Of a stretch of 64,000 nt of DNA, positions 45,907 to 51,408 are shown piece by piece; position 1 is the stretch's first letter, and each line of letters starts with the position of its first letter. The notes beneath the pieces were generated by a model. The model was not told the origin of the DNA. It ran no database searches and saw only the letters and a program-made list of their open reading frames with translations. A program made the translations under genes and the position numbers. Origin of the DNA: Staphylococcus phage Machias; sequence record MW349128.1; one strand, given 5' to 3'.

Positions 45907-47208
45907 ATGGCAAAATTAACAAGTAAAATTCATGATTTAATCAGATCAAACCCTAATGTATATGGTAAGGAAGATAATTATACACCTATGTATGAGTCAG
46001 GAATCAACTTATTAGATTATAGAAATGGTTTTTTAAATACTGTAACTGATGATGAACGTATTGGTTTAATGGGTGGTAAAGTTACAACATTTATTGGTGG
46101 ATCAGGTTCAGGTAAAACAACATTAGCAATTCAAGCTGCAGCTAAAATTGTTGAACCATTTGAAAATGCTAGTATCATTCATTATGACTTTGAGGATGCA
46201 ACTACTGATGAACGTATTTATCAATTAACTGGTTGGTCTAAACAAACGAAACAAGATAAATACACTAAATTAAATAAAAAGATTAGTTTAGATTCAGTGG
46301 ATCAATTAATTCGTGGTATTCGTGATACTAAATTAGAAAGTGAAGAAGAATTTACTATTCATACAGATAAGATTGATCCAGAAACTGGAGAAAAAGTTTC
46401 ATTCATGGCTCCAACAGTAGTTATTATTGACTCTGTTGCTACAATGGCATCTAAAGAAATTGATGATAAAGACGGTGAAGGTGGACAAATGAATGCAACT
46501 AAACAAGCTAAAGATAATACAACATTCATTAAACGTATTATTGGTTCATCTACATTAAACTCAGCTAATATTATGCTTATTTTAATTAACCATATTACGA
46601 CTAAAATTGATATTAATCCTTATGCAGCTACACCTAAAGAATTAAATTATCTTAAACAAGGTGAAGCATTACCAGGTGGTAAAGCAATCAACTATATGGC
46701 AAATAACATGTTTAAAATTAGTCCATCGCAAGCTTTAGATCCAGAAGGAAGTTCTAATCAAGCTAAATACGGAATTAAAGGTTTTATCAATACAGTTGAA
46801 GTAATTAAATCACGTTCAAATGCAGCTGGAGCTAAATTTAATTTGATCTTTGAACAAAAAGATGGATTTAATAATACTCTATCAAACTTATTATATTTAC
46901 AAGAGCAAAAATTATTAAAAGGTAATCCTCGTGCTTACCGTATTGATGGTTATGATGATGTAAGTTTTACACTTAAAACTTTCCAAGAGAAATATGAAGG
47001 GAACAAAGATTTCCAAGAGTACTTTGATAAATACATTAGAAATATCTATAAAGATAAATTCTTAGCTTCAATTGAACATGAATCAAGTTTAGATGAAGAA
47101 GAATTAGAGTTGGTAGAATGTATTAATCAAGAAGAAGATATTTGGTTAGGTTCAGATGGAAAATACTACGATTCAGAGAAAAATGAAGTTGAAGTAGAAA
47201 AAAGCTAA
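45907..47208 (+). CDS. uvsX: UvsX/RecA-family recombinase
   Basis: Walker A GGKVTTFIGGSGSGKTTLAIQAAA; RecA-fold organisation with an acidic C-terminus. Start moved to the ATG after RBS GGAGAG (track start 45889 is upstream of the RBS). Confidence 0.85.
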   Translation: MAKLTSKIHDLIRSNPNVYGKEDNYTPMYESGINLLDYRNGFLNTVTDDERIGLMGGKVTTFIGGSGSGKTTLAIQAAAKIVEPFENASIIHYDFEDATTDERIYQLTGWSKQTKQDKYTKLNKKISLDSVDQLIRGIRDTKLESEEEFTIHTDKIDPETGEKVSFMAPTVVIIDSVATMASKEIDDKDGEGGQMNATKQAKDNTTFIKRIIGSSTLNSANIMLILINHITTKIDINPYAATPKELNYLKQGEALPGGKAINYMANNMFKISPSQALDPEGSSNQAKYGIKGFINTVEVIKSRSNAAGAKFNLIFEQKDGFNNTLSNLLYLQEQKLLKGNPRAYRIDGYDDVSFTLKTFQEKYEGNKDFQEYFDKYIRNIYKDKFLASIEHESSLDEEELELVECINQEEDIWLGSDGKYYDSEKNEVEVEKS

Positions 47209-47354
47209 TTATATTTAAAATGGAATATCCAATGACATGAATAGTTGTCATTGGATCCATTCCATTGCATAAAATTATTATTAAATATATATTATAAAGA
47301 TGTGGAATACTATTTCATATTATCTTTTATATTACAGGGAGAGTGTTTATAGGA

Positions 47355-48472
47355 TGACAAAGGAAAGAACACAAAGAATGCAAGAGATTGAAGATAAGAA
47401 AAGTCATGAATTTTTATCGGAACTACTATTAATGCCTAATGTTAATAGAACTAATGGTAATAGATCACAAATGTTCACTTCACATATAGGTCAATGTATT
47501 CAATTAACTGAAGCTGAACCTCCATTAATTCAAACTGGTTTTGAGAATCAAGTAGGTAAATATTCAACTGGTTATAAGAAAGCTGAAAGAGATTTTGAAG
47601 TTATTTTTATATTTGAAAAGAATAAATATGTAAAATACTATTTAGTGAAGTATAAAGATAATGATGAGTATGATGTTATTATTAGAGAAGAAGCTAATCA
47701 TTTAGCTGAAAAGTTCGGTAATAAATATCAAAATGAAAAAATTGATTCTTTAGAAATTGGTAGTACTGTTGATAAAAATGAAGTACTTTATAAAGATCAA
47801 AACTATGATGAAGAATCAAATAATTTCCAATATGGTACAAACGCTACTTCAGTATTTTTACCAGATAAAGGATTCACGAATGAGGATGGTATAGTCGTAT
47901 CAGAATCATTAGCTGAGAAAATGTCAAGTTATTTCGTTCATGTAGTTAATGTAACTATAAATACAAATGATATTCCTTTAAATATTTATGGAGATGAAGA
48001 ATATTATAAAGCATTTCCAGACGTTGGTGAAGAAATTAAAGATGGAATATTAACAGCTACTAGAAGATTAAACTATGATGAGTTAATTCATAAGTTCAAA
48101 AATGACATGTTATCTAAAGTTATTGAAAGTGATAACGCTTATAAATTACATGGTAAAGTTATTGATATTGATGTACTTAACAATGAATCAATTGAAAAAT
48201 TAGAGAATGAAAAGTACTCAGAACAATTCTTAAAATATATCAAAGATTTAGAACACTTCTATCGTACATTTGTAACTGTTACTGACGATATTGTACGTAA
48301 GAAGAAATTTAGTAATGATTTAATTAGAACTTATAATAGATTTAAGAGCTACATTGACCCTAATGCTAAACTTGTATATGATGGAAATCAATTTGATAAA
48401 ATCGTATTTAGAGTTAAAGTATTAGAGAAGAAACCTTTAGTGCATGGGAGCAAAATAAGCACAAGATACGGT
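47355..48472 (+). CDS. Multisubunit RNA polymerase beta subunit, C-terminal half, exon 1
   Basis: Aligns to bacterial beta from ..GNRSQMF/AEPPLIQTGFE (ANMQRQAVP/ADKPLVGTGME) through FLPDKGFTNEDGIVVSESL (FMPWNGYNFEDSILVSE) to ..GSKISTRYG (GDKMAGRHG). Start at the ATG after RBS GGGAGAG. The beta N-terminal half is not in this window (split beta). Confidence 0.8.
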
Positions 48473-48646
48473 ATTTCATCTGCCGCATGAAGTTGCAAAA
48501 TTTCAATGAAAAATCTTTTAATTGCTGAGAAAATTAGAATTAATCAGCATCACTAAAAATAGTGTTCAACGACTAAATAAAGTTAATCTAATATAGATTA
48601 AGATATAGTCTGATCTTATAATGTAAAATTATAGTTAACATAGATG
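48473..48646 (+). mobile_element. Ultra-compact group I intron F (174 nt) inside the RNAP beta GRHG|NKGV catalytic-region motif
   Basis: Exon ends ..UACGGU; guide sequence GCCG at positions 10-13; P2 GAAGUU-GCAA-AAUUUC (GNRA). P/Q/R/S core at 48518-48611 with P6 CACU..AGUG and P8 UUAAUCUA..UAGAUUAA. P9 UUAUAAU..AUUAUAG; ends ..UAACAUAGAUG|. Splicing gives TRYG|GKGVVAKI, matching [12 protein letters not shown]. Confidence 0.7.
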
Positions 48647-49154
48647 GGAAAAGGTGTAGTAGCTAAGATTGTTCCAGATAATGAAATGCCAATGATTACT
48701 GAATTTGATGGAGAAGATTTCACAAAAGATAATAAAACCCCTATTAAGAAAAGAGTAGACTTAATTCATAATAATATGGGTATTATTAATAGAGGAAATC
48801 CTTCAGCATTAGTAGAATTAGAATTAAATCATATTTCAAGCGTTATTAGACATCGTATTAGTAAGTTAGATGATGTTAATAAGCAAAAAGAATACTTATT
48901 AGAATATATCAAAGATGCAGATAAAGTATCTTATGATAATTATGTAAAATTATTTGATAGTTTAGATGGTGAAGAAACTAAAGAAGCTATTGAAGACTTT
49001 ATTAAAAATGGTATTGTACTTCATCAAGCTCCTTTCTTTGATAATATTGAATCTGAACAAATTAGATACTTATTCAATAAATATAATATTAAGAAAAACC
49101 GACTAGATGTTAGTAATAGAACATTTATGGTTGGAGATTTGTATCACCTGAAGT
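48647..49154 (+). CDS. RNAP beta, exon 2
   Basis: GKGVVAKIVPDNEMPMITEFDGEDFTKDNKTPI..VDLIHNNMGIINRGNPSALVELEL aligns to [46 protein letters not shown]; ends ..VGDLYHLK (VGYMYMLKL). Confidence 0.8.
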
Positions 49155-50319
49155 AAAGACAAATTATGTTTTAGCTTCCTTATATTGGTAACAATAAATG
49201 AAAAATCACTTTAATTGCTGAGAAGCTTTAAAAGTAATCAGCATGCTAATTAATTATATTAAAATCCTTTCTATTGGTCTGGAAAGGTGAAGAGATGCCA
49301 GTACAGAAATATTATACAAAAGAAGAATTTATGGAAGAAGCATCAAAAAGAAAAAGTGTTAAAGGTTATAAAATGCTAACTGATTATGAGAAATCTCATA
49401 ACAAAATAAAATTTTTACATGAAACGTGTGGAAATGAATTTTGGATGGTTGCAGGTAAATTTAAAAATAAAGGACAGAGATGTCCTAAATGTGCAAATAA
49501 AGATAAAATTATATCTAAAAGATTTACAGAAGAAACATTTAAAGAATATTTAAAAAATGAATTAAATGGAGAATATTCTTTAATGGATAATTTTAAAACT
49601 GTTAATGATATTAACACTTTTCTTCATAATAAATGTAAAAACACAATAAAGTTAAAACCTAGAGATATTAGATCAGGATATGGTTGCTCATACTGTTCTG
49701 GAAATAAAAAATTGAATATTGATATAGTAAAAGAAAAAGTGGAATTAATGAGTAAAAAAGAATATTCAGTATTATCTAATGAATACAAAAATGTCCATAA
49801 CAAATTAAAAATGATTCATCATGAATGTGGTTTTAAATTTGAGATGAATTATAATAATTTTAGAAACGGACAGAGATGTCCTCAATGTTATCCAGGTTCA
49901 GTATTTCCAAATAGATCTAAAGCTGTTGTAGAAATATATGATTTCCTTAAAGAAAATGGTTTTAATTTTAAAACCGAAGTCTCTTTAAAAGGATTAAAAT
50001 ATATAAATCCACTTAGATTAGATTTCTATATTGAAGAGTTAGATTTTTATTTAGAATATGATGGATCTCAACATTTCAAAGAATCAGGAATTAATGATAA
50101 TGATAGTTTGGAATTGAATCAATTAAGAGATAATATTAAAAATGAATACTGTAAAGAAAATAACTTAAAACTTTATAGAATAAACTATAAACAAGACCAT
50201 TTAAAAGAGATTGAAAATATAATTAAAGAGCTTCAACGACTAAATAAGTGAAAGTCTTGATTAATTTGATCAAGATTTAAGATATAGTCTGGGATCTATA
50301 TGAAATTAATATAGATTCG
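49155..50319 (+). mobile_element. Group I intron G carrying a homing-endonuclease ORF in P6; 3' boundary uncertain
   Basis: Guide sequence GCUUC pairs exon GAAGU (5' splice site after 49154); P2 UAUUG-GUAA-CAAUA. P/Q at 49211-49250, then the ORF, then R/P8/S at 50240-50292 (the ORF ends in ..QRLNK, encoded by CAACGACTAAATAAG). P9 CUAUAU..AUAUAG and ..UAAAACAUG follow. Confidence 0.55.
49295..50251 (+). CDS. Intron-encoded homing endonuclease candidate: three zinc-ribbon repeats plus a C-terminal Vsr-fold/EDxHD (DUF559-like) nuclease domain
   Basis: Repeats F.HE.CG..F.....F..GQRCP.C x3. C-terminal RLDFYIEELDFYLEYDGSQHF resembles the (V)IE(V)DG..H core of Vsr-like EDxHD homing endonucleases. 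RBS GGAAAGGTGAAG. Confidence 0.7.
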   Translation: MPVQKYYTKEEFMEEASKRKSVKGYKMLTDYEKSHNKIKFLHETCGNEFWMVAGKFKNKGQRCPKCANKDKIISKRFTEETFKEYLKNELNGEYSLMDNFKTVNDINTFLHNKCKNTIKLKPRDIRSGYGCSYCSGNKKLNIDIVKEKVELMSKKEYSVLSNEYKNVHNKLKMIHHECGFKFEMNYNNFRNGQRCPQCYPGSVFPNRSKAVVEIYDFLKENGFNFKTEVSLKGLKYINPLRLDFYIEELDFYLEYDGSQHFKESGINDNDSLELNQLRDNIKNEYCKENNLKLYRINYKQDHLKEIENIIKELQRLNK

Positions 50320-50384
50320 TAAAACATGAACCATCAGGTAAATTATTTGCCGTTCTTTATATAAATTAAAGAATTATTAAATTA

Positions 50385-50480
50385 TTAATTGCTGAGAGTA
50401 TTAAAATAATCAGCATCACTTTAAATAGTGTTCAACGACTAAATATAGTTCTTCTATAATATAGAATGAAGATATAGTCT
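50385..50480 (+). repeat. Group I intron core copy H (probably an intron within RNAP beta; see findings)
   Basis: TTAATTGCTGAGAG / TAATCAGCATCA / P6 CACTTTAAATAGTG / GTTCAACGACTAAATAT / P8 / GATATAGTCT. Guide sequence GCCG at positions 10-13 if the intron starts at 50340. Confidence 0.5.
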
Positions 50481-50637
50481 ATACTTTATAAATTATATTA
50501 TAAAGATTAATAAAATAGAAACTCAGTGCAAAATCAATTGACTTTAATAATTACAGTGGTATTCCCACAAGAACACCGGATAAATTTTGTGTCCCATGTA
50601 TTAGAAATAATATGTATGTAAAGAATATTAATTGCTG

Positions 50638-50721
50638 AGAAGAGTATTAAATTAATCAGCATCCTCAAATAAGAGGTTCAACGACTAAATATATTCTACC
50701 TTAAATGGTAATGATATAGTC
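50638..50721 (+). repeat. Group I intron core copy I
   Basis: Core motifs as above with P6 CCTC..GAGG. Upstream, guide sequence GUCC at positions 10-13 of an intron starting at 50582 (exon ..GGAU), and P2 UAUUA-GAAA-UAAUA. Confidence 0.5.
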
Positions 50722-50847
50722 TAATCTATTTTTAAATAAATATAGTTAATATAAATGTCAAAATTTTACAGATCAAGAATAAACAACAATCCTCTCAGAG
50801 TCAAATAAAAGGCTCCGTTATATAGAAATGTATAAATGTAAAGAATA

Positions 50848-50941
50848 TTAATTGCTGAGAGATTATTAAATTAATCAGCATCACTTTAATTAGTGTTCAA
50901 CGACTAAATATAGTCTACCTTAAATGGTAATGATATAGTCT
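50848..50941 (+). repeat. Group I intron core copy J
   Basis: Core motifs with P6 CACTTTAATTAGTG and P8 TACCTTAAATGGTA. Guide sequence GCUC pairs exon GAGU (5' splice site after 50801); P2 UAUAUA-GAAA-UGUAUA; P9 CUAAAUA..AUUUAG; ends AAUAACUG|. Confidence 0.55.
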
Positions 50942-50969
50942 AGCTAAATAATAATATTTAGAATAACTG

Positions 50970-51354
50970 CGGTGAGATGGAAACAACTAACATGATGATC
51001 GGTGGATCTATCAAAGCTATTAATGAATTAACTAATATGTACTCTAATAATGAAGACTTAAGAAAACGTTTATTAGTAGAGTTATATACAGGTAATCCGT
51101 TTAAATTAAATACTACATTTGAAAAGAGATATCAGAATAACAACACTAAAGTACTTAATGCTTACTTTAGTCCATTAAATGTTAGTATTGATTACAATAA
51201 AGCAGAAGAAGAAGATCTTTATTCAATTATGGATCTTTCTCCAGATCAATTAGAGTTCTTAATGGAAAAATTCGAAAATGTGGATGATATTAAAGATTTA
51301 TCATCTAAAGAAATAAATAATTTAGTTAAAGAAATTAAAGAAGATTCAAAATAA
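50970..51354 (+). CDS. RNAP beta C-terminal exon (track ORF 50977-51354 extended to the predicted 3' splice site)
   Basis: Reading from the splice site gives (V)GEMETTNMMIGGSIKAINELT, which aligns to beta (F)[22 protein letters not shown] with identical GEME-N7-G spacing. No RBS before the ATG at 50977. Confidence 0.6.
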
Positions 51355-51408
51355 ATATAATTGGAGTAATGATGATTAATTTCATCATTACTCCTTATTT
51401 AATAAAAA

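Follow-up and report, generated by a model that had tools for sequence, protein, structure and literature searches.

How the C-terminal half of the beta subunit of the non-virion RNA polymerase is encoded by Staphylococcus phage Machias is a question raised by a locus at which the coding sequence stops short. The locus was analyzed within a window of 64,000 nucleotides (nt) from the 274,478-base-pair (bp) genome (MW349128); all coordinates are positions in this window, on the + strand. The beta-gene region has a G+C content of about 24%. An earlier note on the same window had remarked that no long open reading frame (ORF) continues the subunit after ..VGDLYHLK (at 49156), and the ORF list agrees, the next beta-like ORF being found at 50977; reading from 50970 does yield (V)GEMETTNMMIGG, as was also noted. 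Four copies of a conserved intron element, R, lie between exon 2 and 50970, matching the one ORF-bearing intron and three ORF-less core copies counted there before. The gene is very probably a single transcription unit of six exons and five group I introns, here called F, G, H, I, and J (Table 1). The earlier proposal of four further group I introns in the C-terminal part of beta, three of them tandem, ORF-less, and separated by short exons, stands as a prediction, with changes to some of its splice sites.

Exon boundaries and reading frame

Joining of positions 47354-48472, 48647-49154, 50320-50339, 50519-50581, 50758-50801, and 50970-51354 gives an ORF of 2139 nt with zero internal stops, encoding a product of 712 amino acids (aa). 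This product is identical to that of the intron-free gene of phage PALS_2 at 591 of 714 positions, without a gap in the stretch encoded by the micro-exons (exons 3-5); the restored frame is likewise ungapped through this stretch in comparison with SA1 and PB50. The beta genes of PALS_2, which reads ..VGDLYHLKLKHEPSGKLSAKSLDFNNYSGIPTRTPDSKKYLSRINNNPLRIGEMETSNMM.., and of SA1 are without any intron, and none was placed in either by spliced alignment. Phage PB50 (92% DNA identity) is empty at the sites of introns G, H, and I: its DNA aligns base-for-base to the joined Machias exons (sequence around CACCTGAAGTTAAAACACGAG in this intron-free allele), runs uninterrupted through the three sites, and enters an intron exactly at the J site. 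Over a stretch of 77 codons, 12 codons differ between Machias and PB50, all of them synonymously (12/12).

The spliced-alignment program, whose sole demands were that a U precede each intron and that the intron end in G, recovered the same pattern of 20-, 63-, and 44-nt exons in phage AH12, and an intron at the J site in PB50, Madawaska, and MarsHill. Exon 5 was also found by tblastn as a segment at 50758-50802 with 100% identity. The spliced product is colinear with its ortholog in Bacillus phage AR9, the beta-C subunit of the non-virion polymerase (PDB 7S00 chain C; E 2.4e-136), including LKHEP..K.SA.S....N..G.P and P.R.G.ME; Machias LKHEPSGKLSAKSIDFNNYSGIPTRTPDSKFYRSRINNNPLRVGEME aligns with AR9 LKHEPHSKFSARSTSFMNLRGLPAKSKNFKEHKDLYSKTPVRIGNME.

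All four 5' splice sites chosen in the earlier note (after 49154, 50339, 50581, and 50801) are retained, as are its 3' sites for introns G (50319) and J (50969). Comparison with the intron-free genes places the 3' sites of introns H and I after 50518 and 50757, not after 50558 and 50771; the micro-exons therefore measure 20, 63, and 44 nt, and of the 20, 23, and 30 nt given before only the first is kept. The peptides VFPQEHR and ISRINNNPLR are replaced by KLSAKSIDFNNYSGIPTRTPD and SKFYRSRINNNPLR(V), respectively. The HARSxGP segment, which had been reported as not recovered, is represented by KLSAKS in the 63-nt exon, a HARS-like segment that aligns with KFSARS of the AR9 enzyme. Peptides predicted from the corrected splicing are HEPSGK, SIDFNNYSGIPTR, TPDSK, and VGEMETTNMMIGGSIK.

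Ribozyme fold and splice-site pairing

The introns share the conserved core elements P (AATTGCTGAGA), Q (AATCAGCA), R (TTCAACGACTAAAT), and S (GATATAGTC), with four core copies between exon 2 and 50970. The R element occurs 10 times in the window, always on the + strand, against 1.2 occurrences expected by chance: at 48565 (F), 50232 (G), 50431 (H), 50677 (I), 50896 (J), and at five positions elsewhere. In intron G, the P, R, and S elements are at 49213, 50232, and 50281, respectively.

In 5/5 introns, the exon ends at the 5' splice site in a U, wobble-paired with a G of the guide sequence (U·G), and the last intron nucleotide is a G. The guides GCCG, GUCC, and GCUC previously read for introns H, I, and J do form pairs, the splice-site U·G included, with exons ending at 50339, 50581, and 50801, and each S element is followed by a P9-like hairpin and a terminal G, as had been described. 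The pairings are as follows: intron F, P1 CGGU/GCCG and a contiguous P10 of 3 bp, terminal G at 48646; intron G, P1 GAAGU/GCUUC (5 bp) and a contiguous P10 of 6 bp (UAAAAC/GUUUUA); intron H, P1 GGU/GCC, extended by AAA/UUU, and a contiguous P10 of 3 bp (AAA/UUU); intron I, P1 GGAU/GUCC and a P10 of 5 bp (CAAAA/UUUUG) after one U·U mismatch; intron J, P1 GAGU/GCUC and a contiguous P10 of 1 bp. P10 favors the 3' site after 50518 for intron H and, once one mismatch is allowed, that after 50757 for intron I. The 20-nt exon serves two ribozymes, its bases 1-6 forming P10 of intron G and its bases 18-20 forming P1 of intron H.

Unconstrained minimum-energy folds of introns F, H, I, and J, each taken with a few exon bases on its flanks, give P1, P2, P4, P6, P7, P8, and P9, with a GAAA loop on the P2 hairpin of introns I and J; folding z-scores are about -3.7 to -3.8 (H, -3.8; J, -3.7). 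Covariation was examined in 28 cores from the window and five relatives, representing 18 distinct sequences, whose strands of P3, P4, P6, and P7, defined by anchors, were aligned without gaps. Paired cells make up 97.6% in the 18 distinct cores; sliding of the partners lowers this share to 24-51%. Changes on both sides were found in 11/21 pairs (5/6 in the P3 pseudoknot helix, 4/4 in P6, 2/6 in P4; P7 is invariant), and the observed values were reached by 0/500 shuffles. Variants of P3 are GAAUAU/AUAUUC, AUCUUU/AAAGAU, UCACUU/AAGUGA, UAUUAU/AUAAUA, and UCAUAU/AUAUGA. The helices P2, P5, P8, and P9 vary in length and were judged from per-sequence folds only; they are hairpins in each copy, with sequences that differ between copies. 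The P3-P9 core of group I introns, with its P4-P6 domain and a P3/P7 pseudoknot, is present here with support from covariation. This conserved ribozyme fold, like the exon and intron boundaries and the restored 712-aa reading frame above, we count as established.

RNAalifold, applied to five introns, recovered P4, P6, P7, and P8; its extension of P7 into the 3' strand of P3 (P3') was rejected, as the pseudoknot is not representable in that program. A MAFFT alignment of 23 cores was dropped for pair counting because gaps split the P3' strand.

The IA2 subgroup of the Michel-Westhof scheme, to which the introns of T4 td and Twort belong, is defined by the extra helices P7.1/P7.2 between P7 and P3'. 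In the present cores, 3-4 nt (AAAU) separate the 5' strand of P7 from P3', and 0-1 nt separate P3' from P8; there is therefore no room for the P7.1/P7.2 of this classic phage subgroup, and the cores lack its defining feature.

Table 1 Features of the beta locus in the Machias window, other matched ORFs, and intron insertion sites in the beta genes of Staphylococcus jumbo phages (residues flanking each site are given).
Feature	Position	Strand	Remarks
Exon 1	47354..48472	+	starts MTKERTQ, as QQO92640.1; tblastn and spliced translation colinear with PALS_2
Intron F, group I, 174 nt, no ORF	48473..48646	+	P/Q/R/S core; upstream of the other four introns
Exon 2	48647..49154	+	ends ..CTG AAG T, last U pairs with guide G; spliced alignment
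Intron G, group I, 1165 nt	49155..50319	+	homing-endonuclease ORF inside P6 loop; terminal G 50319
Predicted homing endonuclease ORF, 318 aa	49295..50251	+	last codons overlap the 3' strand of P6 (P6') and the R element
Exon 3, 20-nt micro-exon	50320..50339	+	encodes (L)KHEPSG; colinear with PALS_2, PB50, AR9; identical exon in AH12
Intron H, group I, 179 nt, no ORF	50340..50518	+	terminal G 50518
Exon 4, 63-nt micro-exon	50519..50581	+	encodes KLSAKSIDFNNYSGIPTRTPD; tblastn segment at 50519, spliced alignment, uninterrupted PB50 DNA
Intron I, group I, 176 nt, no ORF	50582..50757	+	terminal G 50757
Exon 5, 44-nt micro-exon	50758..50801	+	encodes SKFYRSRINNNPLR and first two bases of Val codon; spliced alignment
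Intron J, group I, 168 nt, no ORF	50802..50969	+	terminal G 50969
Exon 6	50970..51354	+	encodes (V)GEMETTNMMIGG... to stop; colinear with AR9 non-virion RNA polymerase chain 7S00_C
ORF	53964-54512		exact match QQO92644.1
ORF	42260-42880		exact match QQO92630.1
Site between K and L			introns in Machias, AH12
Site between HE and PSG			intron in LY01
Site between SG and K			introns in Machias, AH12, LY01
Site between SGI and PT			intron in LY01
Site between PD and S			introns in Machias, AH12, LY01
Site between R(V/I) and G			introns in Machias, AH12, PB50, Madawaska, MarsHill

Existing annotation and precedents

The Machias locus and short exons between group I introns are both already on record. 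The deposited protein QQO92640.1 is a joined product of 712 aa that is identical to the corrected one at 711/712 residues and holds all three micro-exon peptides; the sole difference is residue 543, Val in the deposited protein and Leu in the corrected product. In the accessible part of the paper on Machias (Korn et al., bioRxiv 10.1101/2020.12.14.422802), exon numbers are predicted by alignment to homologues; the annotation there is by protein alignment only, and that part of the text contains no discussion of ribozyme structure, splice-site rules, or short exons.

For Staphylococcus phage Twort, PMC10136302 describes three group I introns of subgroup IA2 in orf142, with a 23-nt exon between introns 2 and 3 (after Landthaler & Shub 1999), and reports that self-splicing and exon skipping were demonstrated experimentally. 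The arrangement resembles that in Machias in that a very short exon stands between two similar introns, and both phages have hosts of one genus. The two cases differ in that orf142 is a tail-tube gene of another phage family, and in that Machias has four introns within about 130 coding bases and smaller ribozymes (168-179 nt), which are known from sequence. With exons of 20, 63, and 44 nt, the Machias gene belongs with orf142 among tandem group I introns separated by a few tens of nt of exon. A 34-nt exon between two group I introns, with exon skipping observed, is known from the 23S ribosomal RNA (rRNA) of Coxiella burnetii (PMC10136302); this is an rRNA gene of a bacterium, with introns of different subgroups. 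Exon skipping has also been reported in a polymerase gene of Bastillevirinae (PMC11878797). Micro-exons separating tandem group I introns would be without precedent, according to the earlier note; this statement fails because locus and phenomenon are both on record, in Twort orf142 (23 nt), Coxiella 23S rRNA (34 nt), and QQO92640.1 itself. The AR9 gene is uninterrupted in the micro-exon stretch (a single tblastn piece), in contrast to its Machias ortholog; the AR9 introns lie elsewhere (Korn et al.).

The principle itself is not new, given Twort orf142, the AR9 introns, and what is already annotated. Modest interest remains in how densely the insertion sites lie, in the small size of the ribozymes, and in the wrong or missing annotations in AH12, LY01, and PB50 and at one junction in Machias. 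The locus may also be a convenient natural system in which several small ribozymes, with exons of 20-63 nt between them, fold and splice without mutual interference.

The predicted endonuclease of intron G

The ORF at 49295-50251 is an exact match to QQO92641.1, named "homing endonuclease [Staphylococcus phage Machias]". It matches phrog_559, labeled HNH endonuclease (E 9e-68), as well as phrog_7140 and phrog_9084, whose labels are intron-encoded nuclease and homing endonuclease. Homologues lie inside or adjoining terminase or RNA polymerase genes of many other phages. Being intron-borne and having intron-borne or free-standing phage endonucleases as homologues, the ORF is a predicted homing endonuclease; the HNH class is putative and comes from the PHROG label.

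Between Machias and AH12, intron G is about 100% identical in its ribozyme ends. The encoded endonucleases share only 38% protein identity and are of unequal length (318 aa in Machias vs 447 aa in AH12, ORF at AH12 4425-5768), and P8 is replaced in AH12 by a different, still-paired hairpin. Because the ribozyme ends are identical and yet the ORFs and P8 differ to this extent, the comparison suggests that the endonuclease cassette has been exchanged inside a conserved intron.

Alternative explanations

Several observations weigh against the interpretation of the locus as one gene interrupted by five group I introns. Splicing of the Machias beta gene is something that we infer from sequence alone. 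The P10 of intron J is weak, at 1 bp, and P1 of intron H comprises three exon pairs only. A single base sets intron J apart from its counterpart in AH12; comparison of the cores places it at G50913, in the 3' strand of P3 (AUAGUC in Machias, AUAUUC in AH12 and PB50), where it introduces an A·G mismatch that is absent from both counterparts. Through it, a local GACUA/UAGUC hairpin also arises, in competition with P7 in the minimum-energy fold. G50913 may reflect a sequencing error or a mutation with a mildly harmful effect. The Rfam group I model gave zero matches in a scan of the whole window at the gathering score and in a scan of 46500-52000 at E<=10, and its scores in short stretches (RF00028, 16-41 bits) fall below the gathering score of 50. 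As to the catalytic class of the intron G ORF, Pfam returned weak matches only (DUF5889, 22.5 bits vs a cutoff of 27.1, and sub-threshold zinc ribbons), and a PDB sequence search with this ORF gave zero matches.

The RF00028 matches in short stretches (200-660 nt) were 40.7 bits for intron F (E 2e-9), 40.4 bits for I (E 8e-9), 39.6 bits for J (E 1.4e-8), and 15.9 bits for H, with E-values over the four introns spanning 2e-9 to 0.17. The Rfam alignment of intron I shows P1-P9, the same helices as were assigned by hand, and in this alignment, the only one examined, the reduced score goes together with extensive deletions of P5, P6, and P8 when compared with the model. Introns H, I, J, and F are thus, as predicted ribozymes, compact members of group I (168-179 nt) that have been overlooked by standard annotation; Rfam scanning at default thresholds overlooks the whole compact family.

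Other junctions within a spliced gene may be considered. With the 3' sites of the earlier note (after 50558 and 50771; micro-exons of 20/23/30 nt), the product would read ..LKHEPSG-VFPQEHR-ISRINNNPLR-VGEME; the frame is kept, as the note had stated, and no stop codon arises, but 18 residues are lost that are present in PALS_2, SA1, PB50, AH12, AR9, and the GenBank protein of Machias, tblastn places the lost coding sequence from 50519 and 50758, and P10 at these sites has only 1-2 bp. There is next to no chance that these are the junctions used. Nor is it at all probable that the GenBank junction of exons 2 and 3 is right, in which exon 2 ends in AAG (49153), exon 3 starts with G 50319, and residue 543 is Val, so that the deposited QQO92640.1 reads LKVKHEPSG. 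Leu occupies this residue in PALS_2, SA1, PB50, AH12, Madawaska, MarsHill, and LY01, and AR9 reads RLKHEP; moreover, a G instead of a U would precede the intron and its terminal G would become exonic, contrary to the group I rule that all other introns here follow. With the boundaries at U49154 and G50319, the ligated exons GAAGU-UAAAAC are fully complementary to the guide GUUUUAGCUUC. The annotated junction (49153-49155, 50319-50321) appears to be shifted by one base on each side, Val543 having resulted because exon 2 was ended at AAG and the terminal intron G was taken as exonic. For the deposited protein, this means the correction of one junction residue, to Leu543.

A different view of the locus would be that the gene is broken and unspliced, with 47354-48490, 48644-49156, and 50977-51354 giving separate polypeptides or a pseudogene and the micro-exons being relics. 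RNA polymerase subunits of jumbo phages are already split over separate genes (PMC7598289), and ORF callers and the annotations of AH12, LY01, and PB50 present the pieces as separate proteins. The micro-exons, however, code for the best-conserved stretch of the active site, with purifying selection acting on them (differences from PB50: 12 synonymous, 0 non-synonymous), and the intervening sequences carry a covarying ribozyme fold with correctly placed guides; Machias is viable and is propagated with what is seemingly its sole copy of the subunit, Korn et al. giving one gene per subunit part. We consider a broken gene very improbable. It is unlikely, though conceivable, that the five introns are removed but not always cleanly, either because a hybrid ribozyme of introns I and J skips the 44-nt exon, as in Twort orf142, and lowers or regulates the yield of functional beta, or because the small ribozymes need a protein cofactor. 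Skipping between similar tandem group I introns is known from Twort (23-nt exon) and from engineered Tetrahymena pairs (PMC10136302), and from the Bastillevirinae polymerase gene (PMC11878797). Introns I and J are 79% similar overall, with long identical blocks and near-identical P2-P8 cores; the ribozymes are without peripheral stabilizing domains, and J has the P3 mismatch. On the other hand, the guides of H, I, and J differ (GCC, GUCC, and GCUC), and differing guides suppress skipping in the engineered system (PMC10136302); loss of exon 5 (44 nt) would shift the frame and loss of exon 4 would remove conserved residues, so the skipped product would be non-functional.

Relatives and insertion sites

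The nearest kin of Machias by megablast are all Staphylococcus jumbo phages: PB50 (92.5%) and AH12 (91.6%), followed at about 81% by Madawaska, MarsHill, PALS_2, S6, DC4, LY01, and SA1. In Staphylococcus jumbo phages, introns have been inserted at six or more different sites in a stretch of about 130 coding bases of the beta gene (Table 1); in AR9, PBS1, and other Bacillus relatives, the gene is uninterrupted in the micro-exon stretch by tblastn. AH12 (OR455461) has the same G/H/I/J arrangement as Machias; PB50, Madawaska, and MarsHill have the J site in common with it; LY01 (OR836606) has the H and I sites in common and two further insertion sites of its own. The beta locus can be called a hot-spot, densely invaded by introns in the best-conserved part of an enzyme that is essential; this agrees with the known behavior of homing elements.

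Exons 3-5 of Machias were compared with the corresponding DNA of PB50 (4270-4400), where the synonymous differences cluster at the empty G/H and I sites. At the G/H site, PB50 CAC GAG CCT AGT GGG AAA TTA stands against Machias CAT GAA CCA TCA GGT AAA CTC; at the I site, PB50 CCC GAT TCT AAG TTC TAT stands against Machias CCG GAT TCA AAA TTT TAC. This clustering may fit a relaxed P1/P10 constraint in intron-free alleles or a change of endonuclease target.

Annotation of the gene varies among the relatives. The Madawaska and MarsHill genes are annotated as joins of 3 and 4 pieces, respectively, and the MarsHill join implies a 21-nt exon between two tandem introns. In AH12, LY01, and PB50, the beta exons are listed as separate proteins, in AH12 and LY01 mostly hypothetical proteins, and the micro-exons are wholly unannotated; these fragmented "hypothetical proteins" would belong together as exons of one polymerase gene. 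For the related phage DC4, a published analysis that relied on Rfam reported no introns; the DC4 copy of the beta gene looks intron-free.

Further tandem arrangements were seen in two of these phages. In LY01, four tandem ORF-less introns lie at 6172-6933, in the same stretch of the beta gene, with micro-exons of about 9 nt (CCATCAGGT, 6345-6353; delimited by eye, the spliced-alignment program having merged two introns there), about 44 nt, and 19 nt (6730-6748); the 5' splice site in the first of these introns seemingly follows a G, not a U. In MarsHill, tandem introns (about 2620-2980; cores at 2704 and 2903) surround a 21-nt exon, AAAATCACCACACGTTATGGT, encoding KITTRYG, and this pair sits at and just upstream of the position of Machias intron F.

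Proposed splicing and spread

By established group I chemistry, each intron would fold as a compact ribozyme of helices P1-P9 with a P3/P7 pseudoknot. The guide, 10-20 nt into the intron, would pair with the last 3-5 exon bases, the final exon U forming the U·G wobble, and free guanosine would attack 3' of that U. The terminal intron G would then dock, P10 would align the 3' exon, and the exons would be ligated. Every micro-exon would serve two introns, with its 5' end in P10 of the upstream intron and its 3' end in P1 of the downstream intron.

The predicted endonuclease of intron G may cut intron-free alleles of co-infecting relatives and so lead to homing. Introns H, I, and J fall within about 130 coding bases of G; being ORF-less, they were probably carried along by co-conversion or mobilized by endonucleases in trans.

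The Azoarcus intron, the textbook minimal group I intron, is about 205 nt long. A bolder reading would group introns H, I, and J with the related introns of AH12 and LY01 as one family of autonomous group I ribozymes of unusually small size. By change of guide only, for example through reverse splicing into neighboring sites, this family would have reached six or more different sites inside about 130 bases of a single stretch that codes for the active site. Under the tandem micro-exon arrangement (down to about 9 nt in LY01), output of functional RNA polymerase would hinge on splicing that is ordered or cooperative, and exon skipping would be a means of regulation or of competition. We give this reading only a small chance of being correct.

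Other intron copies in the window

A second tandem trio of the same intron cores was observed at 32981-33590 (R elements at 33045, 33246, and 33496), in the gene of another RNA polymerase subunit; the flanking ORFs, 31295-32980 and 33613-33873, both match phrog_3233. The core copy at 33045 looks extremely short (about 110-120 nt), with no obvious P2 and a minimal P8. An ORF-less group I intron of the same family is present at 20518-20694 in a GyrB-like gene (exon ..TSDAD-DDGLHIQ..; P1 CGAU/GUCG; terminal G). A further core copy (R element at 17520) lies at about 17420-17615, between the ORFs 16922-17335 and 17672-18877.

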